In this document: positions 2,468 to 43,325 of the stretch, one piece after another
Layout of the letters: every line of letters starts with the position of its first letter
Numbering within the stretch: position 1 is the stretch's first letter
Source of the DNA: a virus
DNA length: 64,000 bases
Reading direction: 5' to 3' (one strand)
IMG/VR virus record: IMGVR_UViG_3300027974_000020
Location: 96,001-160,000 of that record
Notes under the pieces: generated by a model
Databases searched by the model: none
Told to the model about the DNA's origin: nothing
The model's input: the letters and a program-made list of their open reading frames with translations, nothing else
Translations under genes and position numbers: made by a program

Positions 2468-2505
2468 TTTTAACAAACCTTCCAACACCAGTTGTAAAAT
2501 AACTA

Positions 2506-3246
2506 TCATCTATTTTCATTTTGCTCTTCTGGAATTTCTACTATAGTTTGAGCTTCAATATATTCATCGAGCTCATAAGTACCAAGTTTTTGTTTTAATA
2601 ATTTTTCTTTTTGGATTTCAATTGCTTGAACTTTATATAAAATATCAGATATTGCTTGAGCACTATCAATCTGCATTTGTCCAGCTTTTGCTTTTGCTTC
2701 TCTAGTGGCTAACAATTGATTTCTTAAATCTTTTCTTCTTTTATGAAGCTTATCTTCTAACTCTACAGCTAAGTGTAATTCTTTTCTAAGAATTGGTTCC
2801 CCACTTTCATCAATTCCAATAATATTTTCTTGAATAAAATGTTCTTTTGCTAACAGTTTTGTTTTTCTTAAGTATTGAACTTCTTGATCAACTAAGTCTC
2901 TTATCATGGAAACTTCAACTAAATTATCATAATGAACTTCAAGTTGGTCCATATATTCAGCTGTGAATTGAGAAACGATAGACATTTCAATTGGACATGG
3001 CTTTCCTTTTGGTGCAAGATTTTCTTTAAGTAATGGGCATGTTTCGGCAAAAATGCATTTAGTCGCTTCGCAGTTCATTGGTATTGAAGAAAACATTGAT
3101 GTTCTTGTTTTCTGTGGACGTACGAGTTCTACAACTCTATCCTTTTCTTCTTCGGTCCAATTTTCTGGAAAGAATAAATCTGGTCTTAGTGATTCAAATT
3201 CTTTAATAAAACTTTTTTTTTGATTTATGTTTTCTAATTCACCCAT
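2506..3246 (-). CDS. Hypothetical phage protein with Cys cluster and coiled coil
   Basis: 246-aa ORF; CEATKC..CPLL..PCPIE followed by helical region; part of tight minus-strand operon. Confidence 0.7.
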   Translation of the reverse strand: MGELENINQKKSFIKEFESLRPDLFFPENWTEEEKDRVVELVRPQKTRTSMFSSIPMNCEATKCIFAETCPLLKENLAPKGKPCPIEMSIVSQFTAEYMDQLEVHYDNLVEVSMIRDLVDQEVQYLRKTKLLAKEHFIQENIIGIDESGEPILRKELHLAVELEDKLHKRRKDLRNQLLATREAKAKAGQMQIDSAQAISDILYKVQAIEIQKEKLLKQKLGTYELDEYIEAQTIVEIPEEQNENR

Positions 3247-3421
3247 TAAAATCTATCCATTCTGAGCTATAAAAGCTATCATTTTTAAAAGTCTCTATCA
3301 CCAAACTGTTACAATACTGACAAAGATATTCATTTTTTATAATTATATCAGATTCTTTATCATCTATAAATTGCTCTTTATATATTAAACCCATGGTGCT
3401 ATTACACCTCGGGCAGAGCAT
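3239..3421 (-). CDS. Small zinc-ribbon protein
   Basis: CPRC...CQYC; overlaps neighbour by 8 nt. Confidence 0.65.
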   Translation of the reverse strand: MLCPRCNSTMGLIYKEQFIDDKESDIIIKNEYLCQYCNSLVIETFKNDSFYSSEWIDFNG

Positions 3422-3422
3422 C

Positions 3423-3836
3423 TTACATCTCTTCCAAAAGTTTCATTAAACCTTTTTGTAATTTAATCTGGAGTTCTGCATCGTGTGTGGCATTAACGAA
3501 TGTGCTTACTTCCCTCATCTCATCTGGAGATAAATAAGAAGATATTTTATATCTTGATCCCTTGCATATGTCGCAATAGATTTCTTTCTGACCCAGATAA
3601 CATTCACATTTCTCAATGATATCAAAATGCTCTAGTGCACTAGCTACATCTAGCCATTTATTCTTGAATAACTTTTTTGTCTGCTCTTTATAAGCCCTAA
3701 GCTTTTGGGCATCGTTTGACAGAAGTGTTCCCATGTCTAAAGAATGTTTCATTAGTTCATTTATGCTTTTATACAAAAAATTAGCTAACTGAAAATCTCC
3801 ATTTTTATCTGTATAATTCTTCCAATCATCCATCAC
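3423..3836 (-). CDS. Hypothetical protein with CxC...CxxCxG zinc motif
   Basis: ORF in operon; CEC..YCDICKGS. Confidence 0.7.
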   Translation of the reverse strand: MMDDWKNYTDKNGDFQLANFLYKSINELMKHSLDMGTLLSNDAQKLRAYKEQTKKLFKNKWLDVASALEHFDIIEKCECYLGQKEIYCDICKGSRYKISSYLSPDEMREVSTFVNATHDAELQIKLQKGLMKLLEEM

Positions 3837-19354: not shown

Positions 19355-20806
19355 ATGAAGAATAAACCAACAACAAACAAGGAGGAAACGGTGTATAAAG
19401 ACACTGTCTACGCAAAACTGAGAAGGGCACTTTACAATGTCATTCTCGAAGGTAAATTCATGCAAGAAACTCAATGGGACGAGAATGGACGATGCCACAT
19501 GGTTCAGACATTTGGTGACCGTGGAATTATTGCAACAATGCAACGAAAAGCAAATAACAAAGGATGGGTTGTATTCTTTACTTTGTGCATGTACAAGCAC
19601 GAGCAAAATCACATTCCATTCATGCGTGATTTGAAAGTTAGATTGACTATCAATGAAACTCCATCTGGAGTAAGATTATTGTGGTTTGTTAATGGTAAGC
19701 CACAATGGATGGTAGAAAGTAGTCAAATGGCTTTCTCAAATAAATTCCATCATACTGGACATATAGTTCAAGAAGTTATTAATCAGATCAAGAGTATATA
19801 TTCTCCTGAAGATTTTATACCGATCTTGAAGTACATGCAAAATCCAACATGCAAAGAGTATACTTTGTATGGCCTTAACCAAAGGTGGATGAAAAAGTTA
19901 TCAGGTGGAACAAACCCTAGGCAAATCTTGAATAAAATCTATGGCAAAGATGGGCAGGATGGGTTGAGCAGAAATGCTTTTGGTTCAAATATTGGCAAAA
20001 AGAGTTTTGCTACATTTGCTATAGCAGCTGAGCTAGTGCGATATTTGAAATCATTTCCTACATCATTCTTTGATAAAATCATTCTTGATGACTTTGCAGT
20101 ACAAGATATTGCATACTTGGGGATGATGTATCAAGATGTAACTTACATCCAATATTTCATTAAGTACTTTAATCACAGTAAAATCCAACAAGATTTTATT
20201 AATGCGATTAATAACTTTGAAATGTATCCACATTCTGATTATGACATTTCAGATGCTACAGAACGTTTCTTTAGGATGAGCATTTGGCAGGAAGCACGTG
20301 ATACCGGCAGGATGTTCAAGGAAATAAAGAACAGAGCTGTTCGGAGAAACATCATTGCACTTAAAGGCACGGTTCAAGAAACCCATGACCTTGTCACTAT
20401 CGAGAATGCAAAGCTAGCTCGAGAAGATAAGCAAATCAAATACAGTGATAAGAGCCTTATCCTGGATGGTCAACAGATAACAGATAATATTATTTCTGTT
20501 CTTCCGAAGACAACGTTTGATTTAATATTATGGGGTTCACAACAGCACAACTGCATAGGTAGCTATGGAGATCGTGTTGCTCGTGGCACAGGTGCGATTG
20601 TTGTTGGATTCAAAGATGTGACAACAGATACTTGGGTCGGCCATGCTGAACTCAATAACTATTTCAACAGCTTTGGAAGTTCTTGGACAATCATGCAGTT
20701 GAGGGGCAAATATAACTCAAACCTTGATGAGTCAGATGAAACTACTATTCGTTTGTTTCTGGACAACATACTCAATGCTTGGAATGAAGAGTTAGTATTG
20801 CCATAA
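19355..20806 (+). CDS. PcfJ-like domain protein
   Basis: C-terminal LILWGSQQHNCIGSY...MQLRGKYN; start may be GTG 19391. Confidence 0.75.
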   Translation: MKNKPTTNKEETVYKDTVYAKLRRALYNVILEGKFMQETQWDENGRCHMVQTFGDRGIIATMQRKANNKGWVVFFTLCMYKHEQNHIPFMRDLKVRLTINETPSGVRLLWFVNGKPQWMVESSQMAFSNKFHHTGHIVQEVINQIKSIYSPEDFIPILKYMQNPTCKEYTLYGLNQRWMKKLSGGTNPRQILNKIYGKDGQDGLSRNAFGSNIGKKSFATFAIAAELVRYLKSFPTSFFDKIILDDFAVQDIAYLGMMYQDVTYIQYFIKYFNHSKIQQDFINAINNFEMYPHSDYDISDATERFFRMSIWQEARDTGRMFKEIKNRAVRRNIIALKGTVQETHDLVTIENAKLAREDKQIKYSDKSLILDGQQITDNIISVLPKTTFDLILWGSQQHNCIGSYGDRVARGTGAIVVGFKDVTTDTWVGHAELNNYFNSFGSSWTIMQLRGKYNSNLDESDETTIRLFLDNILNAWNEELVLP

Positions 20807-20936: not shown

Positions 20937-23528
20937 ATGGAAGACCAACCGGTCAAACCGCCCGATGCAGCGGCCAATGCATCAACAAAGGAGAAGAAGA
21001 TGCCAAAAGGTATCATCACTTTCCTGAAGGGGCGCTTTCGCGTTCTGACAAATAATCCAACTCCGAAAGAGGAGCAGGCATACAATTTGTCTCAGGAAAC
21101 CAATAAGCCAGTCCCGTTTGGACGGATCAAGACTGTTACTGGATACAATTATGTCCAGGACGTCTACGCTGTTCAGACTGGTGACTTCACCTACTCCTTG
21201 TTGGAGAACAAACTTACTAAGCGGGGAATTAAGTTCCGTTTAGGAGTCGTCTCTAACAAGGATCTATCAGAGCTCGTAATCAAACACGAACTGTTCAGTC
21301 TTAATGACATGATCAGTAAGTGCAGGTTCGCATGGGCTAACGCATCATACACCTTCTTCCTGGAGGTTCAAGACAGTAAAGAAGCATCAAGCTTTGATCT
21401 GTCTGATCTTGGGTTGGAGGTCTATGACTTCAAGAAGACCAGCAAACGTTTGCAGGAAGTGACTCGTATCACTCAAATGCATTCGTCTGGTCCGATTGGC
21501 AAACTTGATTATCGCATGTTGGAAGATCTTCCTGGTGAAGAACTTGCATATGATGGTCCAGTATTTGTCAGCGACTCATTTGCAGTGCGTTCTTGCTTTA
21601 GTATGACTGATGGTCCTGCTAAGAACAAGCACATTGCAATGATCAATCGCGGTAAGATCGGTCCAATGATTGGTCGTATTCTGATGGATCAAGGTGAAGT
21701 TAAGGGCCTTGTCCACGTTGTTCCACGACAACAGCTAGGTGCGGATGTGGTTTTCCACAAATCTGCTCTGAAGCGAGAGTTAAAGACTGACGATGGACGT
21801 TGGCACTATACTGCCTTCAAACACAAGAACCTCCACACTGCTATGTGGGATATGCAAACTATGTTCAATAACCATACCTGGTTAATGACCAAAGAGCAAT
21901 TCACACTGGACATGGAGTCTGTTATCACTGACTTTAACAAGTCTGTTGAGAATGGACAGCTTCCTGACTGGATTATCCACCAGGAAACTGACGGGCACAA
22001 GGATGACTCAGCTCCACAAGTAGAGCATGTGACATCTGGCTGGAAGAAGAGTTACATCCGCTGGCAACAAGCTGGTTTGGATGTAACTGCATCTAGCAAC
22101 CTCGTCTACATGGCTTTCGGATCATTGCTGAACCAAATGCGTTCTGCTTTGAAACGAAACACGTGGTGGGTTCCCATCTCTAATGCCTTTACGGCGACAG
22201 TAACCACCTTCGATGCTTTGGAGGTCATGGGTAACTTTGAGCTGCCTCAGCACAAACGAGACATGGTGTTCTTTGATGAACGCTTTGGCTGTATTGTGCC
22301 GACTAAGCGGTTCATTGAGACTGCTGACCTTCATGACACGTGGGATCAGGACGGTGACCAAGCTAAGTTCATCCGCATTAAACTGTGGAGTTCTTCGCTT
22401 GTTATGAGCCTTGATGGATACAACCATCCGGAACTCAGGGAAACATATGTCATTCCTGCTGATTTGGTAGTGCCAAGCACTCCTGAAGAGGCAATTGATA
22501 TGTGTGTCGTTATCCGTTCACCAAACGGTCCTGGCGGTTACTCTATCGAACGGTTTGATGCTGAAACGATGCCATGGCTTCGTGTAGCGGAAGATCGTGT
22601 ACAGGTAATTGATCTGGCCAAAGCACCAGCTGCAATGAGCACTTTGCTCGTTACAACTGAATGCGGTCAGATTAATAGCTCCACTACCTACAGCAAGGAA
22701 TTGTTCAACCGGGATCATGCTCTTAATATGATCTTGGCACAGATGAATAACCCTGGTGTTGGTAGGTACGCTAATCTCATTATGGTTTGGGCTGCAACAT
22801 TTGGTCCAAGCTATCCTGATAAGTTGCCTGCAATTGGTAACGATGTCATTGACTGTGTTCAACAGACCGCAGACCTTGGTTCATTTGTTCAATTGCAAAG
22901 TGACTACTCAGAAATGGCTGAAAGCATTGCTCAGGCGATCATTGACAGCGGTTGTGGTATTGACCGTTATGTTCTTGAGACCCGGTTCCCTGCACTCAGC
23001 GATGAGACACGCCAAATGCTGGTAGATATTGCAGTAGACGGTCAGTTTACTGAGATGTACAACGCATACAATCAAACTATTACAAAGGTGCAAAATATCG
23101 CATCCAAGGGTAGCTTTGATCTGCGTTTGACATCTGACACTCGTAACAAAGTGTACAATGCAATTCCAGCTATGAGGGAGTCAACCTCTGTTTGGTGCCG
23201 TGGCATCTGGTCAAAGTATGAACGTGAACTCTCAAGGGTTGACGGTAAGTACTCTGAACTGTCCAAGAATACCAATCGCTTTGTAAAGATGTCTGCTGTT
23301 GCACAACGCACAGAAGAAATCTCTACCATCATTGGTGCACTGTTGGATGAAGTCAAGGCAACATCACATCCTGAGCTCTATGCTCTTGCTATCTACCGTT
23401 GGATCATTGATCCGGAACTGACTCGCAGTAAGTATGGCGTGTCTGACCGTATCATCTTCCAGAACGGAATAGACGGACAAGAGACCATCATGGATCTCAT
23501 TATCACAGCAATCAAGGACCTGAAGTAA
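20937..23528 (+). CDS. Putative single-subunit two-barrel RNA polymerase (cellular RdRP/YonO-like), paralogue A
   Basis: KKTSKRL, YDGPVFVS, GRI..GEVKGLV, DVVFHKSALK, catalytic DQDGD (22344-22358), IRSPN, GVGRYAN, VIDCVQ; alternative start ATG 21000. Confidence 0.75.
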   Translation: MEDQPVKPPDAAANASTKEKKMPKGIITFLKGRFRVLTNNPTPKEEQAYNLSQETNKPVPFGRIKTVTGYNYVQDVYAVQTGDFTYSLLENKLTKRGIKFRLGVVSNKDLSELVIKHELFSLNDMISKCRFAWANASYTFFLEVQDSKEASSFDLSDLGLEVYDFKKTSKRLQEVTRITQMHSSGPIGKLDYRMLEDLPGEELAYDGPVFVSDSFAVRSCFSMTDGPAKNKHIAMINRGKIGPMIGRILMDQGEVKGLVHVVPRQQLGADVVFHKSALKRELKTDDGRWHYTAFKHKNLHTAMWDMQTMFNNHTWLMTKEQFTLDMESVITDFNKSVENGQLPDWIIHQETDGHKDDSAPQVEHVTSGWKKSYIRWQQAGLDVTASSNLVYMAFGSLLNQMRSALKRNTWWVPISNAFTATVTTFDALEVMGNFELPQHKRDMVFFDERFGCIVPTKRFIETADLHDTWDQDGDQAKFIRIKLWSSSLVMSLDGYNHPELRETYVIPADLVVPSTPEEAIDMCVVIRSPNGPGGYSIERFDAETMPWLRVAEDRVQVIDLAKAPAAMSTLLVTTECGQINSSTTYSKELFNRDHALNMILAQMNNPGVGRYANLIMVWAATFGPSYPDKLPAIGNDVIDCVQQTADLGSFVQLQSDYSEMAESIAQAIIDSGCGIDRYVLETRFPALSDETRQMLVDIAVDGQFTEMYNAYNQTITKVQNIASKGSFDLRLTSDTRNKVYNAIPAMRESTSVWCRGIWSKYERELSRVDGKYSELSKNTNRFVKMSAVAQRTEEISTIIGALLDEVKATSHPELYALAIYRWIIDPELTRSKYGVSDRIIFQNGIDGQETIMDLIITAIKDLK

Positions 23529-30096: not shown

Positions 30097-30169
<73 letters not shown>

Positions 30170-30388
30170 CGAGGCATGGTAATCTAAAGCAATGGCTTAT
30201 TACCAAGCCACCAGCAGTGTAATCCCCGGGCATGAATTGCCCTCGTGTGACAGTAACCAATCAAAGATTGAGTCTCTACCTCCAGTTAAGAATCTCTTTG
30301 TGTCCACCCAAATTACCCCATAATTGGGTGCCGGGGTTTACACCCCTTTTTTTAGAAAGGCAATATCTAGTATATTAGAAGGAATGAA

Positions 30389-30868
30389 ATGACTATCTTA
30401 GAACAAGAAAGTAAACTTAAGTCGTTAGGCACAAGAGTGCCTTTGACGGATGATCCTAAAATTAGGGGCATCTTAGCAGTCCATTACAGCCTTTGGCAGG
30501 GCCGCGAATCTATTGAGCATAATGGCAAACAACTGACGGTTTACCAGCCGGCACATAAAGGATATTCATCCGTAGTTATCCCTTCAGAATCGGGTTATAA
30601 TTTTCTGTGGATTACACAGAATATGGAACCCTCTAAAGATAGCTACGGTTCAATGGCTATCCGTAGATCTCAACAGCTTGGGGACAACAAAATGATCACC
30701 TGGATTGTAGACAATACTGGTGGTAAATTTGTTTATGTAGGTAGCATACATACTACCCATTACTTCAACGGAGACCAAGATGTTATAATCGAAAGATACG
30801 TAGAAGGACAGACTGAAGTAGTCTACACAAACATGCCGTTCTATTATCAAGCTAAATCCAAATATTAA
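30389..30868 (+). CDS. Hypothetical protein
   Basis: 159-aa ORF with RBS. Confidence 0.75.
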   Translation: MTILEQESKLKSLGTRVPLTDDPKIRGILAVHYSLWQGRESIEHNGKQLTVYQPAHKGYSSVVIPSESGYNFLWITQNMEPSKDSYGSMAIRRSQQLGDNKMITWIVDNTGGKFVYVGSIHTTHYFNGDQDVIIERYVEGQTEVVYTNMPFYYQAKSKY

Positions 30869-31040
30869 AATTGTTATACCCCTAAATTTATATAGGTTTG
30901 CATGCCAACCCTATATAATAATATATGAGTTGTAACAATAAAAAAAACATTATCAACAAACTTGCTTAATTTTCATTTTTATACTATAATATTTATATAC
31001 CCTTATACACCTAAATAACCCACAGAAAACGGAGATTGAA

Positions 31041-31256
31041 ATGGCTAAGCCATCAAAAACCCCACTTATTAATCAATTCATTAATTCCAATACAGACAAA
31101 ATTTATTCCACAAAAGAAATGTGTGTACAAATTGGCGTTAGCCTTCCAACACTTCTTAGTTATATTAAGAGCAACACAGAGCGTTTTGAACTTGTTCAAT
31201 ACGGTGTTTACAAGATCGTTAAGAGTGGTCAACAACCTATTGCAGTTGAGATTTAA
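31041..31256 (+). CDS. Small helix-turn-helix protein
   Basis: STKEMCVQIGVSLPTLLSYI. Confidence 0.65.
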   Translation: MAKPSKTPLINQFINSNTDKIYSTKEMCVQIGVSLPTLLSYIKSNTERFELVQYGVYKIVKSGQQPIAVEI

Positions 31257-31430
31257 TAGTTAGTTTATTTAAAAATAAAGTTACTATTATTGCATCATCT
31301 ATAAACATAGACGGTGCGCAGTCAAGTCTGCTTTAAAACAAGATCTTTTAAGTTAAAAGATTAAGTAGACCCAACCAAGGAGTATTGGTATAAATACTTA
31401 CAATAACAAGAAATGTGATATAATAAATAC

Positions 31431-31610
31431 AATGCCCGTAACATGCGGGCAGGGAAATAATCCCTAACGTAACAGAGTAATACTGTGAAGTCGGAGATGG
31501 CTAACCTGCCAACTGTGACGGGCATTTCGTATCTGTCCGCACATCTTCGGTTTCGCAACCTGCGCCGTACTAATGGTGTTTCGCAACACCAGACAAAGAC
31601 GAAAAGGAGC
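31431..31610 (+). promoter_or_regulatory. Structured 5' leader of transglycosylase gene
   Basis: AATGCCCGT/ACGGGCATT long stem competing with local TGCCCGTA/TGCGGGCA hairpin; two GTTTCGCAAC hairpins; TTCGT..TGTC/GACA..ACGAA stem adjoining the AAGGAG RBS. Confidence 0.55.
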
Positions 31611-31619
31611 GAACACGAA

Positions 31620-32210
31620 ATGCAAGTAAAATACAAAAAAGCAATGCTAGTATCTATTGTTGCAGGAATATTCCTGTCTTCTGGTATAGCCAATTCTAGT
31701 GCTACTAGGATTGAACAACCAGTACAGGAACCTCCCAGTACCGTCAAGGTACTAACTGCACCCGATAGATTAGACAAATATAATGCAATTGATTCAATTG
31801 TGTTTAAACATGGAGATATATCTTGGCTTCCATTATTAGCCAAAGAGGCTGGTTGGCCCCGTAAAACGTGGGACAAACTAGGCGATATTATTCTCCGTGA
31901 ATCAGGTGGATGCCCCAATCGAATTGGTGGTTCCATAGTTGACAAAAATTGTAATGTAGTTGGGCACTCAGGTGCTGCAAATAAATCCGATTCAGGATTG
32001 CTACAAATCAATGGAGTCAATTGGGATCCCAAAAGAGATGGCAGACAACTACTTTGTGCAGATTATAGAATCTGTACTCAAGAACAACTCCTGGATCCGG
32101 TTACCAACTTAGTTGCAGGCTATGTCCTGTATCAAAAATCTGGTTGGGATCCATGGGACCCATGTGCATGGGGGCCTAGTTTTGCCCATAGGTGTAAAAC
32201 TGGCAAATAA
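31620..32210 (+). CDS. Secreted lytic transglycosylase (SLT/lysozyme-like)
   Basis: Signal peptide; IILRESGG (catalytic Glu), DSGLLQIN, LLDPVTNL, GWDPW; start refined to ATG 31620. Confidence 0.85.
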   Translation: MQVKYKKAMLVSIVAGIFLSSGIANSSATRIEQPVQEPPSTVKVLTAPDRLDKYNAIDSIVFKHGDISWLPLLAKEAGWPRKTWDKLGDIILRESGGCPNRIGGSIVDKNCNVVGHSGAANKSDSGLLQINGVNWDPKRDGRQLLCADYRICTQEQLLDPVTNLVAGYVLYQKSGWDPWDPCAWGPSFAHRCKTGK

Positions 32211-32308
32211 TTACAAATAAATATTATGAATAAAAGGGGGGGCCTTGTGCCCCTCCTTTTTGTTAATTCAAAACAAAGCATCCCATCGAACTAAAGAAAG
32301 GCTAGTTC

Positions 32309-32731
32309 ATGCTACTAACTATGATGTTAATCTTAGCTATCACTTCAACTCTAGTAGAGTTGTTGATTGCTTCTAAAGTTAAATGGTGGAGACAGAAGTC
32401 TCACGACAGCAAACTGTTCAACATGTTGAACTCGCTATTCCTATCATTCTTGATAGGTTTAGCATTCAGTGCCTCTGGCTTAATTGCCATGGGTGCTGGC
32501 GTAATATCAACCGTGTTGTCCGTTCCCGGCTATCAATTCCTGTATTGGAATTATGATGGCCCAATGGCACAAAAACATGGTGGTAATATGATGTTACATT
32601 TGAAATCTAAATGGTTTCAAACAATTAAGGATTTCTTTACACTTGTGTATAAAATCCTGAGAATAATCACATTCCCAATTTGGGGAACTAGATGGGCAGT
32701 AACTAAACTAAAGACAATCAAAACTAAATAA
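32309..32731 (+). CDS. Membrane protein
   Basis: Several hydrophobic segments; GAAAGG RBS. Confidence 0.7.
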   Translation: MLLTMMLILAITSTLVELLIASKVKWWRQKSHDSKLFNMLNSLFLSFLIGLAFSASGLIAMGAGVISTVLSVPGYQFLYWNYDGPMAQKHGGNMMLHLKSKWFQTIKDFFTLVYKILRIITFPIWGTRWAVTKLKTIKTK

Positions 32732-32759
32732 AAAAATCGAGTAGACCGTAGGAGGTAGC

Positions 32760-35321
32760 GTGTCACTAATCACATACAGACCAATTGTTCGGCTTCGCTC
32801 AGAAGCAAATGGGCCACTTCGCAGCATGAATGATTACCAGTTCGGATTTTACGATACTGGTTTTCTTCGTCAAGCTATGAAGTCTATCCCTAACGCAACA
32901 AATTATCGAATGGCTACTATGCCCATTCCACAGAATCCACACGAAGCTCGGATTGCTGAACAGATTATTAAGCACCCCGATGTATGCTATGCCGTAGTTG
33001 ATAAAAATAAGATTGCAATTGTTATCATAGAGAACAATCCAGGATGGTTGTCAATCTTTAAAGAAATGGGCTATGAAGTCTTTGCCGGCGATAAGACTGG
33101 CAAACGACTCAAGACCTTTCATCGTCCAGCATTGTTGAACGCTCACTTTGAAAAAGATGAGATTAAAGTTCACGTTGCTGATTCAACAGACTATTGCTCA
33201 TATGACTTTGAGAATGGAGAAGTTGCAAAACAATTTTGCGACCCATCCATTACTAAACGCCTTCTTGATGGCGGTTTTGTAATTTCTCGCAAGTTCGTTA
33301 AAAGAGCAATAGAAAATATTCCAATGTATCATCCAGAAGATACAACTGACAACAAAGAATATTATTATGATTGGCGTATTCGTAAGAAGCTTGTAAAGAA
33401 TCTTATGAAAGCTCCAATCCTTAATGTTCGCATTGTCTTTGAAGGAGGCTTCCTCAAGGGCAATGCAATCGTTGTTGACGAAGAACAAATGCCAGATGAT
33501 ATTGATATTATTACCAGTAGTGAAAATATTAAATCTGAAATAAAATATCACAATGGTTTTCAATTTCTGGCCGAACCTCAAGGTTCCCATGAACGAGTCA
33601 TCACTGACGATCAAACTGTAATCAATTTGGATAATCTTTTCATCACATCCGATATGGATTTCTGGTTAACAGAAGAATATGAGAAGATGTTCAATGATGC
33701 TATTAATTCTAAACTATTGACTAATTGGCAAGAAATTTACAAACGTCAGTTTCGTAATGTTGCATCAGCAGAAGATGAAGAAGCTAACTCTCGCATGTCC
33801 TATGTGGGATATCGTTGGGTGGCAAGCGGTATGAAAATTACCGATTCTCCATGGCTCTTTGAGACATTAGCAACAAGTCATGCAAAGCCATTTCAAAAGC
33901 GTATTCCAATTCCTTGCACAGTTTATGAGCAAGTAATTCCAGAATCTTTAGCTCGTGTGGCTGGCTATGACATTGATGTTGAGACAGAAACTATTCAGCG
34001 TATTAATGAACTTGGAGTTCATGTTGTCAATGATCTTGACTGGCTTGAGATGTATGAATCTCATGGCGGTCACGACGAGGACGACTACTTCAAATGCTTT
34101 TATCGCACAATGGTTGGTGGACAACAATTCGATGGCGAACGTGTCGTCATCATTTGTCGTTCTCCTAATGGCTATGGTGAGTATTCAATCTTTAGATATG
34201 TAGAAGGACAATGGTCTCCAACATGGCATAAAGCAGATGGTACTCCAATTCAGTTTCCTGAAGTTTCTGGACGTGGATGGCCAACTCGTTTGAGTGAAGC
34301 TATCTACCAGAATGAAGTTAAATATGACAAACTTCCATCTGAGTATCAAAATAAAGTAAAACCAAATGGTCATTATACTCCAGACGACGTTATCCACGAC
34401 ATGCGTGTAGCTATGGGTGGTGGTAATGTCGGTGGATATGTAAACGCCGTTATGGCTCATTCCCTTGTTTTACACACTCATCGTCCAAACCAACTCTGCT
34501 CCATGGAGAAAGCAATCGACAAATGTATCAATCCAGATTATATCGAAGATGCTCTTGCTATCGATGCCGAAGCTAGAGCTATCGTTAGAGAAATCATTGA
34601 TTCTAAACAACCAATCGATTCTGAATTCTGGAGCCGCAGAGGCTTTTCACGTTATCTAAAAGATGGTGAAACAGTAGATCTTTTCGAAGGAAAGATGAGT
34701 CACATGAACACATTGTGTTCAGAAAAATATCGTGACTACTGTTCTCGAATTCGTGAATGGTCACAAGCAAATGCTGGCCCACCACAGATAGTTCATGATC
34801 TTGGTAAGCGTTTGTATTTTCACGCACTGCCTATTGTAAGAAACTTTAGAAGTACTATTTATACAGTAAATACTTCTGAAGCTACTCAAGCAACAGGTAC
34901 AATTGTTCGCAATTCTTGGGAAGAATTGTATTCTGATATTGTAAATATTGTTAATTCTTTTGATAGAGAAGAAGACAAGCATGATTTTATTATTGCTATG
35001 TATTCTGTATCTTTAAAAGTACCAACTTCTAGTGGTAAAATAACAGATCAAATTGTTATGAATCGATTTGTATATCCTTATCTAGAAGCAGCTTTACAAT
35101 TTTATGGCATTGCAAATACCGTTGTATTTTCTCCTACCGAAGATGGAGACGTTGATATATTCAACGTTGAAAACAAAGAATGGAGATATCCTAATCCAAA
35201 TGGAGATATTGTAGTTTACAATGATCCAATTGAATTTCAAAATGCTCATCGAATAGATAGCACAGTTGTTTTTACAACTCAAGAACCACCAGTCAGACAA
35301 TCTAATATATCCAAATATTAA
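32760..35321 (+). CDS. Putative single-subunit two-barrel RNA polymerase (cellular RdRP/YonO-like), paralogue B
   Basis: DKTGKRL, LDGGFVIS, NVRI..GFLKGNA, DIITSSENIK, RIPIP, GGHDEDD (Asp residues 34074-34085), CRSPN, NVGGYVN, AIDKC; collinear with paralogue A. Confidence 0.7.
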   Translation: MSLITYRPIVRLRSEANGPLRSMNDYQFGFYDTGFLRQAMKSIPNATNYRMATMPIPQNPHEARIAEQIIKHPDVCYAVVDKNKIAIVIIENNPGWLSIFKEMGYEVFAGDKTGKRLKTFHRPALLNAHFEKDEIKVHVADSTDYCSYDFENGEVAKQFCDPSITKRLLDGGFVISRKFVKRAIENIPMYHPEDTTDNKEYYYDWRIRKKLVKNLMKAPILNVRIVFEGGFLKGNAIVVDEEQMPDDIDIITSSENIKSEIKYHNGFQFLAEPQGSHERVITDDQTVINLDNLFITSDMDFWLTEEYEKMFNDAINSKLLTNWQEIYKRQFRNVASAEDEEANSRMSYVGYRWVASGMKITDSPWLFETLATSHAKPFQKRIPIPCTVYEQVIPESLARVAGYDIDVETETIQRINELGVHVVNDLDWLEMYESHGGHDEDDYFKCFYRTMVGGQQFDGERVVIICRSPNGYGEYSIFRYVEGQWSPTWHKADGTPIQFPEVSGRGWPTRLSEAIYQNEVKYDKLPSEYQNKVKPNGHYTPDDVIHDMRVAMGGGNVGGYVNAVMAHSLVLHTHRPNQLCSMEKAIDKCINPDYIEDALAIDAEARAIVREIIDSKQPIDSEFWSRRGFSRYLKDGETVDLFEGKMSHMNTLCSEKYRDYCSRIREWSQANAGPPQIVHDLGKRLYFHALPIVRNFRSTIYTVNTSEATQATGTIVRNSWEELYSDIVNIVNSFDREEDKHDFIIAMYSVSLKVPTSSGKITDQIVMNRFVYPYLEAALQFYGIANTVVFSPTEDGDVDIFNVENKEWRYPNPNGDIVVYNDPIEFQNAHRIDSTVVFTTQEPPVRQSNISKY

Positions 35322-35376
35322 TAACTAACAGTGTGAGTATATTCTGCTCACACTGTTAGTATAAATAAAGAAAGGA

Positions 35377-35763
35377 GTGCTCGTGAGCACTACTACATCA
35401 TATACCAATACACATCCAATTGATGAAATGTTTAATAATATTCGTAATATCATTTCATCTCAACCTATTAGGTCAGATTATATTCCATATGTTGAAGAAA
35501 GAAATTCTGTTTCTTACAAACTTGGAAAATATAGCCGCAAAACTGTATCTTACTTTAAGAGATCAGAGACAAAAGCCTCTATGTTAATTGCAACATGGGC
35601 TGTAGAGAGTTTAGCATACGCTCTTACATTCCTAGTTCTAGTAACTTCTGGAGCTTTTATCACTGCAGCTCTTTGGACAGCTCTTTATGGGTATATTTCA
35701 TATGCATTCTTTGCTATGTTGCGCGACGCAGCTGTAGCAAATGTAATTTTTACAAAGAAATAA
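35377..35763 (+). CDS. Membrane protein
   Basis: Two C-terminal TM segments. Confidence 0.7.
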   Translation: MLVSTTTSYTNTHPIDEMFNNIRNIISSQPIRSDYIPYVEERNSVSYKLGKYSRKTVSYFKRSETKASMLIATWAVESLAYALTFLVLVTSGAFITAALWTALYGYISYAFFAMLRDAAVANVIFTKK

Positions 35764-35773
35764 TTACACAACA

Positions 35774-36376
35774 ATGAACTATTCTCAAATTAAATCCTAT
35801 GTTTCTGATCCAGAACAAGAGATATTGTCAATAAAATCTTCTTTTGAAGAACACGTATCTTTAGCTGGAAAAGAAACTTATCGCCCAAGAGTTATGTTCT
35901 ATAACTTTTTTGGCGAAAAACTTTTTGGCATAGTCTCTAGGCCATACGTTGATCAAACTGATTATATTAGTTCTATCGCAGAAATGATGTATTCTTATAC
36001 TGCTTTAACTGCATCTTCTGCTGTTATAGTTTTAGAAAGTAACATCACTAAAAATGGAAACCTAATTGGCAGTTGTCTAAATGCTTATTTGGTATCATCA
36101 GATACTGCTCACGCAGTAACCATTCCTTATGATCATGCCCCAGATAATAAAGTTATTTGGAAATCTTCTGAAGAAATTATTAAAGAAGTAGATATGAATA
36201 CAAATTCAGGCATGCCTTTGGAAATGCTAGAATTATCATATGCTTTTTCGCATATTGATGATGCTCCATTTTCAATGCCAGAATTGTTATCGTATTATAC
36301 TTCTATGGGGTTTATATTTAAATCCTTTAAGAAACTTAATTATACATACATAGATTATGCAGAAAATAATACATAG
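35774..36376 (+). CDS. Hypothetical protein
   Basis: 200-aa ORF in operon. Confidence 0.75.
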   Translation: MNYSQIKSYVSDPEQEILSIKSSFEEHVSLAGKETYRPRVMFYNFFGEKLFGIVSRPYVDQTDYISSIAEMMYSYTALTASSAVIVLESNITKNGNLIGSCLNAYLVSSDTAHAVTIPYDHAPDNKVIWKSSEEIIKEVDMNTNSGMPLEMLELSYAFSHIDDAPFSMPELLSYYTSMGFIFKSFKKLNYTYIDYAENNT

Positions 36377-36548
36377 ATTATGTCTTACTCAAACTCCCCA
36401 GAAAAAAAGCAAAAGCTTTATTGCTCAATTAAAGATAAAACTGTTATAGTGTACACTAAAACAGAACCACTTACCGATGAACAATTAGAAGACATGATGG
36501 TAGATTCTTTACCACATGGATATACGGAACCTTTTATCTAAGGAAAAC

Positions 36549-38240
36549 ATGACTATAACATTACGACCATACCAAACAGAAGCACTGCAGTCTATTGTAG
36601 ATTATCTTGAAAAAGGAATAAATAAACAACTAGTAGTGCTACCAACTGGTTCTGGTAAAACTGTAATATTTAGTCATATCCCTCAGATCATACCTAATAG
36701 TTTACCAATGTTAGTATTAGCTCACCGTGGTGAGCTATTAATCCAAGCAAAAGATAAGATATTAATATCTAATCCTCGTCTTGATGTACAAACAGAAAAA
36801 GCAGAAGATACCGCAGAGCTTAATGGCGATGTCGTTGTAGCTTCTGTCCCCACTTTGGGAAGAGCAGATTCTAAAAGATTATCTAAATTCCCTAAAGATT
36901 ATTTTAAAACTATAATTGTTGATGAAGCACATCACGCTTCTGCTGAATCATATAGAAGAATTCTAGATTATTTTAAACCAAACTTGTTGCTTGGTGTAAC
37001 TGCTACTCCTCAAAGATCCGATTCTGTTCGTCTTACAGATGTCTTTGATGAAATTGTATATTATAAAAATATAATTGATCTTATTCAAGAAGGTTATCTT
37101 TGTAGACTAGTAGGATACAGAGTTAAAACAGACACCGATATATCAGAAGTGGAGACTTCACATGGCGACTACATGGCTTCCCAATTGGAAGATACGATTA
37201 ACACTCCTAGGCGCAATGCTACTGTTGTTAAGTCTTATCTTGAGTTTGCTCCGAACAAAAAAGCAATCGTATTCGCATCCGGAGTTGCTCACGCCAAAGA
37301 CTTGGCCACATCCTTTGCGCAAAAGCAGATACCTGTACGAGTAGTACTAGGTGAAACATCAGATGAAGAAAGAAAAGAAATCTTTTCTAAATTCTCATCT
37401 GGTGAAATTAAAGTAATTGTTAACGTAGGTGTGCTCACTGAAGGATTCGATGAACCCTCTGTCGAATCAATCATATTGGCTAGACCTACTAGATCTTCAC
37501 TTCTTTATACTCAAATAGTAGGACGTGGTACACGTTTATTTGAAGGTAAAGAAAACTGCATTATCATAGATATTGCGGACATGACCAAAGGTAAAAAGCC
37601 TCTAGGTTTGCCAACCTTATTGGGCATGCCTGCAGATTTTGATTTGCAGGGTAGTGATCTAGTAGACATCTCTGAAAAATATAAAGAGCTTGAAGCTTAT
37701 TGTCCGGGAGAAGCAGTACGTGTACTTTCTCCTGATGACATAGACTTAGCTTATAAGCGTATTGATCTCTTCATGCCTCCTCCACCAAATGAATTCATTA
37801 TGCAATATTCCAGCTTTGTCTGGGCTGAAATTGCAGAAGGTGAATATCACCTTGGATTAAATAATAATGAATCATTAAAGATTTTTGCTGATACTTTAGG
37901 TAGAATAGTTGTATCTCATACACAAAAAACTACTGCTGGTAATCCTCCAAACATAACTATTCTAGGTTATCCAGATGATATTCGAGAAGCATTTGCGCGA
38001 AGCGATAGATGGGTGATGAACAATCGTCCAGTCTCAGTAAATCTTATTAACAATACTGCTGCTTGGAGAACTGATTATCCAACTGATAAACAAGTTAAAC
38101 TACTCAAGCGCATTGGTGTACCAGTTACGTCAGACATGACCAAAGGAACAGCAAGCAATATTATTTCTAAATATTACGAAGCTAATCCTAAACCAAAATG
38201 GCTTGAAAACAAAATAACTTATAACAAAAAATGGAATTGA
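36549..38240 (+). CDS. Superfamily II DEAH helicase (Irc3/RadD-like)
   Basis: LRPYQ, PTGSGKT, DEAHH, TATPQR, TEGFD, QIVGRGTR. Confidence 0.93.
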   Translation: MTITLRPYQTEALQSIVDYLEKGINKQLVVLPTGSGKTVIFSHIPQIIPNSLPMLVLAHRGELLIQAKDKILISNPRLDVQTEKAEDTAELNGDVVVASVPTLGRADSKRLSKFPKDYFKTIIVDEAHHASAESYRRILDYFKPNLLLGVTATPQRSDSVRLTDVFDEIVYYKNIIDLIQEGYLCRLVGYRVKTDTDISEVETSHGDYMASQLEDTINTPRRNATVVKSYLEFAPNKKAIVFASGVAHAKDLATSFAQKQIPVRVVLGETSDEERKEIFSKFSSGEIKVIVNVGVLTEGFDEPSVESIILARPTRSSLLYTQIVGRGTRLFEGKENCIIIDIADMTKGKKPLGLPTLLGMPADFDLQGSDLVDISEKYKELEAYCPGEAVRVLSPDDIDLAYKRIDLFMPPPPNEFIMQYSSFVWAEIAEGEYHLGLNNNESLKIFADTLGRIVVSHTQKTTAGNPPNITILGYPDDIREAFARSDRWVMNNRPVSVNLINNTAAWRTDYPTDKQVKLLKRIGVPVTSDMTKGTASNIISKYYEANPKPKWLENKITYNKKWN

Positions 38241-38243
38241 TAA

Positions 38244-38705
38244 ATGACTAGAATATTAGCTAAACATCCAACAATTCAACCTGAGAATTATCAAAGAAGT
38301 AAAAATTCAAAAGATTTACGTGTTAAATCTTTGCTTCTTCCTTCTTCTGATTTAATGTATCCAGAATTAATTTTTGATTCTTCTTTAAATATAAAAGAAA
38401 AAGTATTTTATAATTTAGAGGATATTTACCTACTTCCATTACATCCTTATTATCATATCTATATTGATAAATCTGTACAGTATGATTTAAAAAATGTTAA
38501 TCCTGTAGCTACTTACATTTATCGTCAATCTATTCGTTCTTTTATCGGCAAAAACAGTATCGAAACAATACATGGAGATGTATTATTTTTCGGTTCTGTT
38601 AATGCAGATACAAAAGAGAATGATGATATCGACTATTCTGTTCCTTACGAAATCGTAGAACAGATAGCTAGATATTATGATTTTAATATTTTCCCATCTA
38701 GTTAA
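38244..38705 (+). CDS. Hypothetical protein
   Basis: ORF; NPVAT...IHGDVL motif. Confidence 0.7.
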   Translation: MTRILAKHPTIQPENYQRSKNSKDLRVKSLLLPSSDLMYPELIFDSSLNIKEKVFYNLEDIYLLPLHPYYHIYIDKSVQYDLKNVNPVATYIYRQSIRSFIGKNSIETIHGDVLFFGSVNADTKENDDIDYSVPYEIVEQIARYYDFNIFPSS

Positions 38706-38750
38706 AATAAAAAAATAGGGTTCGTCAGAATTCCTATAAAGGAGACATTC

Positions 38751-38975
38751 GTGTCACTAAGTATAATGATAAATCAAACATCAGAAGATATCAGCATGAT
38801 TTCTTCTATTAAAAGTTATCTGGTTCAACTCGATCATAATAGTTATGATGTATCTGAATTAGATCTAATACCTTTAGACAACACTATCAAGTGGTTAAAC
38901 AATATATTATTAGTTCTTGATGATCCAGAATTTGGTCAGGAAGAACTTTATAATCCACTTGAAATATCTGGTTAA
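38751..38975 (+). CDS. Hypothetical protein
   Basis: AAGGAG RBS. Confidence 0.6.
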   Translation: MSLSIMINQTSEDISMISSIKSYLVQLDHNSYDVSELDLIPLDNTIKWLNNILLVLDDPEFGQEELYNPLEISG

Positions 38976-38980
38976 CATTA

Positions 38981-39066
38981 GCCCAGGTGGCGGAATTGGT
39001 AGACGCAAGGGGCTTAAACCCCCTCGGCTAGAAATGGCCGTACGGGTTCAATTCCCGTCTTGGGCA
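38981..39066 (+). tRNA. tRNA-Leu(TAA)
   Basis: Cloverleaf with long variable arm; TAA anticodon loop. Confidence 0.95.
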
Positions 39067-39087
39067 CATTAGATAGAAAGTTGAGTT

Positions 39088-39417
39088 ATGCGGCATATCC
39101 CCAAAATCAAAAATGTATTATATAATGTTTCTTGGATGAATAAAGCCGCTTGCAAAGGTCTTACTCATATATTCTTTGGCAAATATGCAGAAAGACCACA
39201 ATCTACTGTAAGGAGAGAAGCCAGAGCTAAATCTATTTGTAGCCAGTGTTCTGTCTTTGATCAGTGCCGTCAATATGCTAGAGATAATATGGAACTTGGT
39301 TACTGGGCCGGCGAAAACGAATATGATAGATATTTAATTTCTCCTTCTGAAAAAGTTCCAAGCATACATGCTAGAGCTTTAAAAACTTATTCTAATAAAT
39401 TAAATAAAAACAATTAA
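39088..39417 (+). CDS. whiB: WhiB-family Fe-S transcription factor
   Basis: WMNKAAC...FF...AKSICSQCSVFDQC...GYWAG. Confidence 0.92.
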   Translation: MRHIPKIKNVLYNVSWMNKAACKGLTHIFFGKYAERPQSTVRREARAKSICSQCSVFDQCRQYARDNMELGYWAGENEYDRYLISPSEKVPSIHARALKTYSNKLNKNN

Positions 39418-39425
39418 AAAATTTA

Positions 39426-39498
39426 TGGCGAGTAGCTCAGTTGGCAGAGCAGCGGACTGTTAATCCGCTTGTCGTAGGTTCGAGCCCTACCTCGCCAG
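39426..39498 (+). tRNA. tRNA-Asn(GTT)
   Basis: Cloverleaf; GCGGA-CT-GTT-AA-TCCGC. Confidence 0.95.
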
Positions 39499-39950
39499 CT
39501 ATGACAAAACAAATTACAGACCTTATAGATAATGCTATTAAACAAATATCAGGAAGACAATTAGTTTCATCTTCCGAGATGACTGATCTTCTTCTTGATA
39601 TTAGACTTCATCTTATGATAGATGAAGAATTAATTAAGGTTAATTAATGAACCCTTTACTAAGAAAATGTTCATCGCTTACAATTAATAAAACTTCTTGT
39701 AAGCGTATAGCTTTAAGGTTTAGCTCTTATTGTAGAGCTCATGAACAACCACACAAAAGAAAGCATTCTTTATGATTTCTTCTATATTAAATCCTGGTGT
39801 ATTTGAACCAGATTTTAGACCAATGATTATTTTAATATTAGCTATGACTTTTTCTATAGCTTATGTTATTAAAAAAAATTGGAATAATATTAAAGATGAT
39901 TTTGATGATGATTGGGAATCATAATATTATAATATAATACAAGGAGCAAT

Positions 39951-41360
39951 ATGAGAAAGTCTATTTCCTGGATTGTTTCCGCATCTTTGATCGGAACATT
40001 ATTTTTTATAAACAGTCCTCAAGTTGATGCTAAGGTATCAATGGACGTAATGCAGGCCACTGGTCCTGTACAGTTTAAATTAAATTTAACTAAAGCTATT
40101 CCTTACATCTCTGCAAACATCCCGTACGATTCGGGATACAAGGGACAAGGTAGCTACGTAGTAGTTATTGATTCTGGTGTGCAATCTGATCACCCATTCC
40201 TTGCAGGCAAAGTAGCTCTTGAGGCATGCTTTGCTCCTGTATGCCCTAACGGTACCACTAAGCAGATTGGACCGGGAGCTGCTAAACCAGTTCACTGGCA
40301 CGGCACTCACGTAGCTGGAATTATTGCAGGTTCCAATGCAACCATGCACGGTGTTGCACCAGAGGCAAAGATTATTGCTGTCAATATCTTTAATGCTGCT
40401 GGTTCAACTTACGATGAAAATATTATTGAAGCACTTACGTGGGTTGATTCAATATCTTCTGAGTATAATATCGCAGCGATAAATATGTCTTTGGGTACTT
40501 CTCAAGTATTTAAAACTTCATGCAATAATTATATTCCAGCACTTACATCTATTATCTCTACGCTTAAATCAAAAAATATTGCTACTGTTGTTGCCGCAGG
40601 AAACGGCTATGCATACGGCATGAGTTCTCCTGCGTGCATTACTGACACTGTTAGTGTGGCAGCAACTTATTCTGACAGAGATCTTATTACAAACTTTTCT
40701 AATGTTCATGAAGATACAGATCTTTCTGCTCCCGGTAGTGGAATAAATTCTTCAGATTCTTATTCAAGCTATCGTGTAGCTTCAGGTACATCTATGGCCG
40801 CACCAATGGTTGCTGGTTCATATGCTGTATATCGATCTAAATTTGGCATTCAATCAGTTGATAAAGTCACTTCTGATTTTAGAACTACTGGTATTGATGC
40901 CAAAGATGATTATACTTCTGTGATTACAAAACGTATAGATTTTAAATCTTTATTTAGTACTGGTTTACCTCCAACTACTACAACAATACCTCCAACAACA
41001 ACAACTACTTTACCCGGAGCAACCACTACAACAACCACAACAATACCTCCAACGGATGAAGAAGTAGAGTTTGGTTTATCAATTCCTTATATTGTATCTT
41101 TAAAGAAATATAAACCTAATACATCTTATATGTATGTAGATTTTGTTTATAGATACAATGAAACTAAATTATCTTCTTTCATTCTTGATTGTAGATATAA
41201 CAATTTGCCAAATGCTACAAAAGAAGTTTCAGACCGTAATAAAAATTATAATAATTATTTTATTAAAATTTCTACTGCGTCTATTCGTTCATGCAGAATG
41301 GCTGCAGTAGCTTACGATGGTACAATCGGCCAATATAGTAAATTTGTTTTAGTTAAATAA
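39951..41360 (+). CDS. Secreted subtilisin-like (S8) serine protease with Thr-rich linker
   Basis: VIDSG, HGTHVAG, AAGN, GTSMAAP; signal peptide; PPTTTT repeats. Confidence 0.93.
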   Translation: MRKSISWIVSASLIGTLFFINSPQVDAKVSMDVMQATGPVQFKLNLTKAIPYISANIPYDSGYKGQGSYVVVIDSGVQSDHPFLAGKVALEACFAPVCPNGTTKQIGPGAAKPVHWHGTHVAGIIAGSNATMHGVAPEAKIIAVNIFNAAGSTYDENIIEALTWVDSISSEYNIAAINMSLGTSQVFKTSCNNYIPALTSIISTLKSKNIATVVAAGNGYAYGMSSPACITDTVSVAATYSDRDLITNFSNVHEDTDLSAPGSGINSSDSYSSYRVASGTSMAAPMVAGSYAVYRSKFGIQSVDKVTSDFRTTGIDAKDDYTSVITKRIDFKSLFSTGLPPTTTTIPPTTTTTLPGATTTTTTTIPPTDEEVEFGLSIPYIVSLKKYKPNTSYMYVDFVYRYNETKLSSFILDCRYNNLPNATKEVSDRNKNYNNYFIKISTASIRSCRMAAVAYDGTIGQYSKFVLVK

Positions 41361-41386
41361 TTTTAACAAAAAACAATGACTTTGTT

Positions 41387-41462
41387 GCGCTTTTAGCTCA
41401 GCCGGTAGAGCACCGGACTTTTAATCCGTTGGTCCCGAGTTCGATCCTCGGAGGGCGCACCA
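41387..41462 (+). tRNA. tRNA-Lys(TTT)
   Basis: Cloverleaf with encoded CCA. Confidence 0.95.
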
Positions 41463-41532
41463 TACTAGAAATAATAACATACTGTGATATGTCTTTCTAG
41501 CTTTTTTAATTACAACAACATTAGGAGAATAT

Positions 41533-41877
41533 ATGCCACCATTTGGTAACAAACAAAAAAGAGCAGAAGACAAACGTTCTTCTAATGAAATCGCTATAGA
41601 TTCTGCTAAAACGTCTACCTATAATCTGTGTACTCCAATGTATAAAGCCGAACATATTCGTTTACGCAATCCCATTACTGGCTTAGACAAGCTGTACTCT
41701 GTTTCTGATCCAGCATTTTATGAAGCTTTTTATGAACTTTCTCAATTGGGTCTTCAAGATAAACTCATGCTTGAAATTGAAACATTTACTGCATCTATAG
41801 ATCCCGACTGGCAACCAGTCTATGATTCTCTTCAAGGCTATTTAAAGGCTAAGGAAAAAGAAAACCAAAATGTTTAA
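41533..41877 (+). CDS. Hypothetical protein
   Basis: AGGAG RBS. Confidence 0.75.
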   Translation: MPPFGNKQKRAEDKRSSNEIAIDSAKTSTYNLCTPMYKAEHIRLRNPITGLDKLYSVSDPAFYEAFYELSQLGLQDKLMLEIETFTASIDPDWQPVYDSLQGYLKAKEKENQNV

Positions 41878-43247: not shown

Positions 43248-43252
43248 TAAGA

Positions 43253-43325
<73 letters not shown>

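Follow-up and report, generated by a model that had tools for sequence, protein, structure and literature searches.

The 64,000-nucleotide stretch of DNA analyzed here (the window), which covers positions 96,001 to 160,000 of the 169-kb IMG/VR virus record IMGVR_UViG_3300027974_000020, carries six tRNA genes, RecA/UvsX, a helicase, a Clp-type ATPase and proteases, all of them phage hallmarks, together with two open reading frames (ORFs) related to RNA polymerases (RNAPs). The first, polymerase A (20937..23528, 863 amino acids), is a homologue of the single-chain two-barrel RNAPs, and the second, polymerase B (32760..35321, 853 amino acids), is a paralogue with a DxDD loop; both lie on the plus strand, as do all parts of the two genes for which window coordinates are given below. 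The two proteins are distant paralogues (BLASTP E 2e-6, 18% identity), and in both the loop of metal-binding aspartates precedes the R-S-P-N-G strand: D470-Q-D-G-D474 (from nucleotide 22344) comes before R527-S-P-N (from 22515) in polymerase A, and D439-E-D-D442 (from 34074) before R467-S-P-N (from 34158) in polymerase B. A third, more distant paralogue, encoded in the same genome outside the window by a 754-amino-acid ORF on the minus strand (G000:C1:34901-35953; 1327-3591 of locus L141), is likewise loop-first, ending in a stretch with FDLDD, 23 further residues and T-R-Q-P-S-G.

To our knowledge, every solved two-barrel polymerase shares one common strand order in its catalytic barrel, and this order is the opposite of the one seen here. 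In YonO, ILRSPH stands about 45 residues ahead of FDNDGD, and in Escherichia coli β′, NRAP (residues 424–427) stands ahead of NADFDGD (458–464). A structure-based alignment likewise places the R-x-P strand before the Asp loop in gp96, gp64, QDE-1 (ARSPAH before DYDGD), gp66, Thermus β′ and PolD (PMC10770324, Suppl. Fig. 7). An earlier, sequence-only reading of this stretch had remarked both on the loop-then-RSPN order in the two paralogues and on its reversal in YonO and β′; the former was confirmed from the ORF translations, and the latter on the YonO and E. coli β′ sequences as well as in the published alignment.

The same order runs through the proteins collected as relatives of polymerases A and B. 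The pattern His-x(2-4)-DxD(G)D, followed after 10–90 residues by R-x-P, is present in 320 of 349 collected proteins, a hidden Markov model (HMM) of the subdomain finds the loop and then the hairpin in 331 of 338, and no collected family member has an R-x-P-N motif solely upstream of the loop. In the joint alignment of A and B, D470, D472, D474, R527, P529, N530 and G533 are invariant, as are H466, the first-barrel residues R247, K256 and G257, and G609 and N613 in the bridge-like helices. Among the 27 members of the B-family, the catalytic loop and R467, S468, P469, N470, G473 and E474 do not vary, and in 52 very distant relatives (16% mean identity) the Arg and Pro of RSP are among only 12 invariant columns. 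DxDD is the commoner form of the loop among the 320 relatives (245 proteins), with DxDGD accounting for the remaining 75. As the Asp, Arg and Pro residues are invariant and the pattern recurs in 320 of 349 proteins, the placement of the loop before RSP is a trait of the family and not due to chance.

We modeled polymerase A with AlphaFold2 from a 26-member alignment, obtaining a predicted local distance difference test score (pLDDT) of 86 and a predicted template modeling score (pTM) of 0.83. A Foldseek search with this model is led by QDE-1 (E 2.4e-7), RDR2 (1.3e-6), P74-26 gp62 (5e-5) and gp64 (2e-4), with P23-45 gp96 and crAss gp66 ranked lower and 22 PDB matches at E ≤ 1e-3, and VIA gives Z 12.4 over 606 residues for RDR2, 9.8 for QDE-1 and 9.0 for gp64. 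QDE-1 (from Neurospora) and RDR2 (from plants) are eukaryotic RNA polymerases of RNA interference (RNAi). Since QDE-1, RDR2 and gp62/gp64 rank on top in both comparisons, the predicted fold, in which both barrels face a single active site and are accompanied by a connector and bridge-like helices, places A and B among the single-chain two-barrel polymerases of the QDE-1/YonO class, as had been proposed from the sequence, with QDE-1 and RDR2 as their closest folds. The first barrel (residues 181–296, with R247, K256 and G257; 21477..21824) is modeled as a canonical double-psi β-barrel with conserved basic residues, because stand-alone barrels of this kind (designed 7dww, VAT-N, p97-N and formylmethanofuran dehydrogenase D) align there by VIA over 73–83 residues (about 78) with Z 4.6–5.3 (about 5). 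No stand-alone double-psi barrel chose the second barrel when VIA was run with the full A model. Two model helices further on (592–603 and 609–622; motif residues Q602, N605, P606, G609 and N613 within 592–622, 22710..22802) are the putative counterpart of the QDE-1 bridge-helix motif LG..N.

In the second, catalytic barrel, strands were assigned by DSSP in the full-length model and in a model of the catalytic subdomain (residues 405–565) folded alone from 56 subdomain sequences (pLDDT 88, pTM 0.83). The long first strand s1 (413–424, VPISNAF...; 22173..22208), which is matched by VIA to β1 of RNAP β′/Rpb1, coevolves both with the loop and s4 and with s7. It is followed in the A model by a helix (425–431), by the short, tight hairpin s2–s3 (444–454; 22266..22298; strands 444–447 and 451–454 around a 3-residue turn, with a coevolution ladder at sum 897), and by a second helix (456–461) ahead of the catalytic loop, H466-D-T-W-D470-Q-D472-G-D474 (22332..22358), the named residues of which are invariant. 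The s2–s3 hairpin thereby occupies the place of canonical β2-helix-β3(RxP)-β4-β5. The strand leaving the Asp loop, s4 (475–484; 22359..22388), is matched by VIA to canonical β6, and beyond it come an insertion peculiar to the A clade (485–518; 22389..22490), which has no counterpart in B and in the short-linker relatives, the RSPNG hairpin s5-turn-s6 (519–541, with R527, S528, P529, N530 and G533; 22491..22559; strands 520–526 and 536–538, strand pLDDT above 90), and s7 (556–559). The corresponding parts of polymerase B are its catalytic loop, H435-G-G-H-D439-E-D441-D442 (34062..34085; from the B-family alignment), and a segment comprising the post-loop strand, a GGQQ-type turn, the RSPNG strand and a return strand (443–480, with R467, S468, P469, N470 and E474; 34086..34199).

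Both confident models thus contain just four strands (413–424, 444–447, 451–454 and 475–484) up to the β6 equivalent and two more (520–526 and 536–538) after the loop, with 72 residues from s1 to the end of s4, a region that in gp64 and QDE-1 comprises six strands and takes up 92–103 residues. No Arg-Pro strand equivalent to the canonical one is conserved or modeled N-terminal to the Asp loop, as had been anticipated from the sequence. The isolated subdomain reached Z ≥ 5 with none of 48,161 PDB representatives by VIA, and its best Foldseek match in the PDB has E 0.51. RNAP β′/Rpb1 homologues, gp96, gp62, Ufd1-N, Sec18-N and a designed symmetric barrel align only to residues ~10–80(108) of the subdomain model, that is, to s1–s4, which cover the targets' barrels from first to last strand (49–78 residues, Z 2.1–2.9 by VIA). 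No RIFT, OB or swapped-hairpin barrel was matched at Z ≥ 2 by VIA with the isolated subdomain, and only weak SH3, PH and sliding-clamp matches were obtained. Because there are four strands up to β6, RSP follows the loop and Z stays below 3, the models indicate that the catalytic domain is not a canonical six-stranded double-psi barrel with R-x-P (β3) before the loop, and that the barrel is wired unlike that of any solved polymerase of the two-barrel class.

The position of the RSP strand relative to the Asp loop can be approached through the length of the linker between them and through residue couplings. The last Asp is separated from the Arg by 15–24 residues in 183 of the 320 relatives and by 14 in 2 more, by 23 in polymerase B, and by 43–48 in the A clade; in the short linkers, two arms of alternating hydrophobic residues flank a DG, NG or GG turn in the middle, and the longer linker of the A clade looks like an insertion at the tip of a hairpin. 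In coupling analyses (mean-field and pseudolikelihood, ~110 effective sequences), we observed an antiparallel s4–s5 ladder at i+j = 1001–1003, with the pairs 475–526, 476–525 and 480–521 at 1001, which extrapolates to 474 with 527, as well as an antiparallel s5–s6 ladder at i+j ~1060. When the data were split into a long-linker and a short-linker half, each half again gave both ladders. An antiparallel coupling of s7 with s1 at sum 971 also recurs across the coupling analyses. Linker length, coupling ladder and split-half recurrence agree, so we infer that s4 and s5 form a β-hairpin in which the RSP strand is the partner of the strand leaving the Asp loop. As the register i+j = 1001 pairs 474 with 527, R527 would lie opposite the last catalytic Asp, D474, and beside the Asp triad.

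The strongest coupling overall, and also within the long-linker half alone, joins position 467, which directly follows the loop His, to position 534, at the end of the N-G-x-G turn. Among the 320 relatives, an acidic residue is found at 467 only in 78 proteins, at 534 only in 237, at both in none and at neither in 5, such that these appear as exclusive acidic sites, with either an Asp after the loop His (A: D467, 22335-22337, with G534 at 22536-22538) or a Glu at the end of the turn (B: E474, 34179-34181, with G436 at 34065-34067). The strength of this coupling and the mutual exclusion of the acidic residue together suggest that the turn of the hairpin lies against the catalytic loop, with an extra acidic ligand shared between them. 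The arginine thus appears to adjoin the Asp triad, as the sequence-only reading had expected, on the sequence statistics of hairpin geometry, the 474–527 register and the 467–534 coupling.

Taking these observations together, we lean, with modest confidence, toward the reading that A, B and the third paralogue are two-barrel polymerases with a rewired catalytic barrel, in which the RSP hairpin comes after the Asp loop. The stretch between β2 and β5 of characterized relatives, with its helix and R-x-P hairpin, would be absent, s1 would pair with the loop and s4 as canonical β1 does with β6, and s2–s3 would be a remnant of β4–β5 after loss of β2, the helix and β3. The strand leaving the Asp loop would turn straight back as a β-hairpin whose return strand ends in Arg-Ser-Pro, and a second tight turn (N-G-x-G-E/G) would then lead into one further strand. 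In this arrangement, the RSP hairpin would supply strands that the barrel otherwise lacks, filling the free edge of s4, with the Arg placed opposite the last catalytic Asp on the ladder and its side chain directed toward the metal and nucleoside triphosphate site. The canonical R-x-P arginine touches the substrate ribose or phosphates, and the hairpin Arg may plausibly take over this role; the turn carboxylate (E534 in most members) would be exchanged for the loop residue D467 in the polymerase A clade. In the same reading, s7 would close onto s1 over its first half (register 971), which would make the barrel all-antiparallel. Going further, it is conceivable, if rather doubtful, that the catalytic domain has left the double-psi topology altogether for an all-antiparallel small barrel s3-s2-s1-s4-s5-s6, with s7 closing onto s1, a long loop bearing the Asp triad and the hairpin that follows bearing the substrate-binding Arg.

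Several points weigh against this rewired barrel. The contact between the Arg and the Asp loop and the order of the strands are supported indirectly, through aligned ranges and couplings, and with ~110 effective sequences these couplings are noisy and affected by clade structure. The 467/534 swap amounts to at least 3–4 changes on a FastTree phylogeny of 125 representatives, too few for a sign or independent-pairs test. Some couplings, among them those of 431–444 with 541–553 and of R458 with A519, fit no single simple six-stranded order. Furthermore, s1–s4 superpose on the Sec18-N double-psi barrel over 51 residues at 2.4 Å (VIA), and a fit of such low root-mean-square deviation (rmsd) could mean that the post-loop strand is flanked on both sides, leaving no free edge for a hairpin partner. 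Finally, the RSPNG strand resembles canonical β3–β4 in sequence (QDE-1 ARSPAH, YonO LRSPH), a likeness that would favor a relocated hairpin in the canonical slot. We note that, when six-strand orders were tried (a meander, 3-2-1-4-5-6, one resembling the canonical order but with the β3 slot taken by s1, and others), none met all couplings.

The likeness to β3–β4 and the 2.4 Å fit to Sec18-N are the reasons why we take as the main rival, unlikely as we hold it to be, a reading in which the RSP hairpin is the β3–β4 homologue itself, moved from before β5 to after β6 and still sitting in the β3/β4 slots. Such a move could have arisen, for example, from a duplication of β3–β6 and loss of the flanking copies, giving the order β1 β2 β5 β6 β3 β4 with one psi loop gone. 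It would account for the resemblance of VVIRSPNGxGxYSI to QDE-1 VARSPAHFPSDI, YonO ILRSPHLFREHGV and β′ LNRAPTLHRLGI, and for the superposition of s1–s4 on whole double-psi barrels in sequence order (49–62 residues, 2.4–3.1 Å rmsd), as if β3–β4 were skipped, and the couplings 476–525, 478–525 and 480–521 could then be cross-core contacts. However, linkers of 14–18 residues with central DG or NG turns are hairpin-like and do not suggest a crossing of the barrel mouth, couplings of both parities (475–526, 477–528 and 476–525) suit neighboring strands, and the parallel s3–s5 ladder or the s1–s6 ladder predicted by relocation was not seen in the coupling analysis. The sequence-only reading had proposed a different rearrangement, namely a swap of the two pseudo-symmetric barrel halves, that is, a circular permutation. 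The elements would then run β4-psi-β5-helix-Asp loop-β6 followed by β1-psi-β2-helix-β3. The junction of β6 with β1 would give just the s4–s5 hairpin that we describe, the short helix and conserved strand (555–560) after s6 look like part of a β-β-α-β unit, and s1 couples antiparallel with the 555–560 strand (sum 971) as β4 would with β3. A half-swap would nevertheless be expected to give a full alignment of ~75 residues with Z ~5, and no alignment passes model residue ~108, the targets being spanned by s1–s4 alone (canonical barrels align only to about 414–484). The RSP strand is also directly hairpinned on both sides, with an s5–s6 ladder in both halves of the data, whereas β1 and β2 would have to flank β6, and RSP would fall on β1 and not on the canonical R-x-P strand. 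Since there is no full superposition of the kind seen for the first barrel of the same protein, the swap is not supported by the aligned ranges of the predicted model, and we give it a slim chance.

A further reading places the RSPNG hairpin outside the barrel altogether, as the counterpart of the post-barrel hairpin at β′ 489–505 (NILSPANGEPIIVPSQD, the start of the pore-1 region), with the canonical R-x-P hairpin lost and the barrel left incomplete. E. coli β′ does have a strand, an S-P-x-N-G-x-P turn and a strand at the same place after β6 and a helix, and the VIA match to β′/Rpb1 goes ~25–35 residues past β6 into that region. In the tagetitoxin literature, Q504 of this β′ hairpin is placed near the active site. 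Hhalign of the subdomain profile against this β′ segment gave nothing, however, the closest folds (QDE-1, RDR2 and YonO) have no such motif after the loop, and the subdomain is predicted as one compact unit (pTM 0.83) whose first four strands cannot close a barrel alone. We consider this reading improbable, and in part it overlaps with the rewired barrel that we favor instead of excluding it. There is, finally, the prospect of an artifact, in which the barrel is canonical, its upstream R-x-P strand was missed by alignment and model, and RSPNG is an unrelated conserved turn. The alignments behind both models are shallow (26 and 56 sequences), in silico folding of an isolated domain can go wrong, and AlphaFold2 has been reported to miss unusual barrel topologies (PMC11258233). 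Set against this are the 72 residues and four strands from s1 to the end of s4, compared with 92–103 residues in gp64 and QDE-1, the lack of any Arg within 413–466 conserved across A and B, and the invariance of R527 and P529 throughout the superfamily, such that an artifact seems to us very improbable.

Comparison with known enzymes shows how far the likeness extends. QDE-1 and RDR2 (PDB 2J7N, 7Y7R, 7W84 and 7EU1) are the best fold match (Foldseek E 2e-7 to 1e-6, VIA Z 9–12 over ~600 residues) and share with polymerase A the single-chain layout of first barrel, connector, catalytic barrel and bridge-like helices, together with the motif set R..G.KG, DxDGD and G..N. They differ in that there is no match to A or B at the level of sequence (a search at E up to 1 did not return PF05183), in that A-R-S-P-A-H of QDE-1 stands in a six-stranded double-psi barrel ahead of its loop, and in that the isolated catalytic subdomain of A scores below Z 2 against them. 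YonO, a proven DNA-dependent RNA polymerase from Bacillus phage SPbeta, is likewise phage-encoded, ~840 amino acids long and a single chain with two barrels, DxDGD and h-h-R-S-P, but has the canonical motif order and no detectable profile similarity to A or B. The non-virion and virion RNAPs of P23-45 and P74-26 (gp64/gp62 and gp96; 8F72, 8F5M and 8H2M) are also compact phage two-barrel enzymes, with VIA Z 9.0 for gp64 and 8.7 for gp62 against the A model (~395 residues), and as here there are several paralogues per phage, in the present case possibly with virion and non-virion roles; their catalytic barrel is, however, complete and canonical, at ~92 residues (PMC10770324, Suppl. Fig. 7), and A aligns to it only through s1–s4 (Z 2.5–2.9). 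The virion RNAP gp66 (6VR4) of phi14:2, a crAss-like phage, is another single-chain two-barrel enzyme, whose variant loop DFDID indicates that variant loops are tolerated, as DxDD would be here, but it is a weak match (Foldseek E 0.14, VIA Z 5.1), is 2,180 residues long and has the canonical barrel order. E. coli β′ (rpoC) shares, within 344–505, the Asp loop, strand, helix and S-P-x-N-G turn hairpin, and its β1–β6 frame superposes on s1–s4; unlike A and B, it has NRAP inside the barrel before the loop, belongs to a multisubunit enzyme and shows no profile similarity.

A, B and the third paralogue are most likely DNA-dependent RNA polymerases for transcription of the phage genome. Pointing indirectly to this function are their fold, the unvarying Asp triad, the first barrel's basic residues, the G..N helix resembling a bridge helix, and the occurrence of two to three paralogues per phage. 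By analogy with P23-45 gp96 and gp64 (PMC10770324), the paralogues most likely serve different stages of infection. A large lake phage that carries two or three of these enzymes, as the present one does, probably needs no host polymerase to transcribe its genome.

In cellular RNAPs, RNAi polymerases and archaeal PolD, no part is considered older or less variable than the double-psi barrel with the Asp triad. The A/B-type family, which is abundant and unannotated, would be a known kind of enzyme with a new barrel wiring, in which the chemistry of the polymerase is kept and the strands are connected differently; as such, it would show that the polymerase core can be rewired in nature, and it offers a test case for ideas on the interconversion of small barrels. 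It also presents two testable active-site elements, namely the hairpin Arg and a carboxylate that appears to move between loop and hairpin. Double-psi, double-zeta/RIFT, OB and SH3 barrels have been interconverted in the laboratory by Yagi and Tagami, who found that few changes convert a double-psi peptide into all-antiparallel barrels and that AlphaFold2 failed on such a fold (PMC11258233), results that lend the A barrel model both interest and caution. Were the all-antiparallel arrangement true, it would be a natural counterpart of these laboratory conversions and the first polymerase active site on such a variant.

Searched against 1.8 billion representatives at E ≤ 1e-3, a profile built from A and B retrieved 551 clusters (50% identity), all of them from uncultured phages, mostly of lakes, and the closest predicted viral structures are uncharacterized proteins of uncultured Caudovirales. 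Annotation resources gave little in return. A Pfam-A hmmscan at E up to 1 found no match for A and chance matches only for B, and neither protein matched in a PHROGs search, as had been foreseen in the suggestion that standard HMMs would detect these enzymes poorly. Neither single-protein queries nor the profiles A1 and A4 found a match among PDB sequences, and tblastn of A or B against 50,697 deposited phage records was likewise without a match. Comparing the family profiles by hhalign with the E. coli β′ segment and with YonO gave no usable alignment. A profile search with the 52 distant members retrieved only 7 proteins. That such enzymes escape profile searches may be due to the rewiring of the barrel. 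When viral contigs were scanned with a subgroup, mostly B-type sequences were retrieved. Single contigs can carry A-type as well as B-type genes. Different polymerase subfamilies were also seen together on viral contigs of 200–230 kb (loci L016/L102, L011/L109 and L013/L119), so that several paralogues per phage are the rule in this group. Some A-family relatives (P0050, P0054 and P0066) carry an N-terminal PF08719 domain ("ribA/ribD-fused uncharacterized protein" according to one source).

A few further observations concern the polymerase genes and their surroundings. Part of the A-clade insertion (504–515, YVIPADLVVPST; 22446-22481) has a pattern I-P-A-D...V-V-P-S-T that resembles S-P-A-N-G-E-P-I-I-V-P-S-Q of E. 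coli β′ (492–504), and VIA alignments to β′/Rpb1 reach this stretch; the resemblance may be coincidence. The ORF of the third paralogue is directly followed by another long ORF (407+ amino acids), and because of this neighbor the third paralogue may belong to a larger protein, possibly one associated with the virion. The gene directly upstream of polymerase A (19355-20806, plus strand) encodes a PcfJ-like product (PF14284, E 2e-11), and the tRNA genes, listed as lying downstream of the polymerases at 30097-45325, are those for Arg-TCT, Leu-TAA, Asn-GTT, Lys-TTT, Met-CAT and Thr-TGT. The G+C content of the window is 40–46% over 12–28 kb, the region of polymerase A, and 29–36% both at its left end and past 34 kb, and the strand bias of the window flips near 6 kb.

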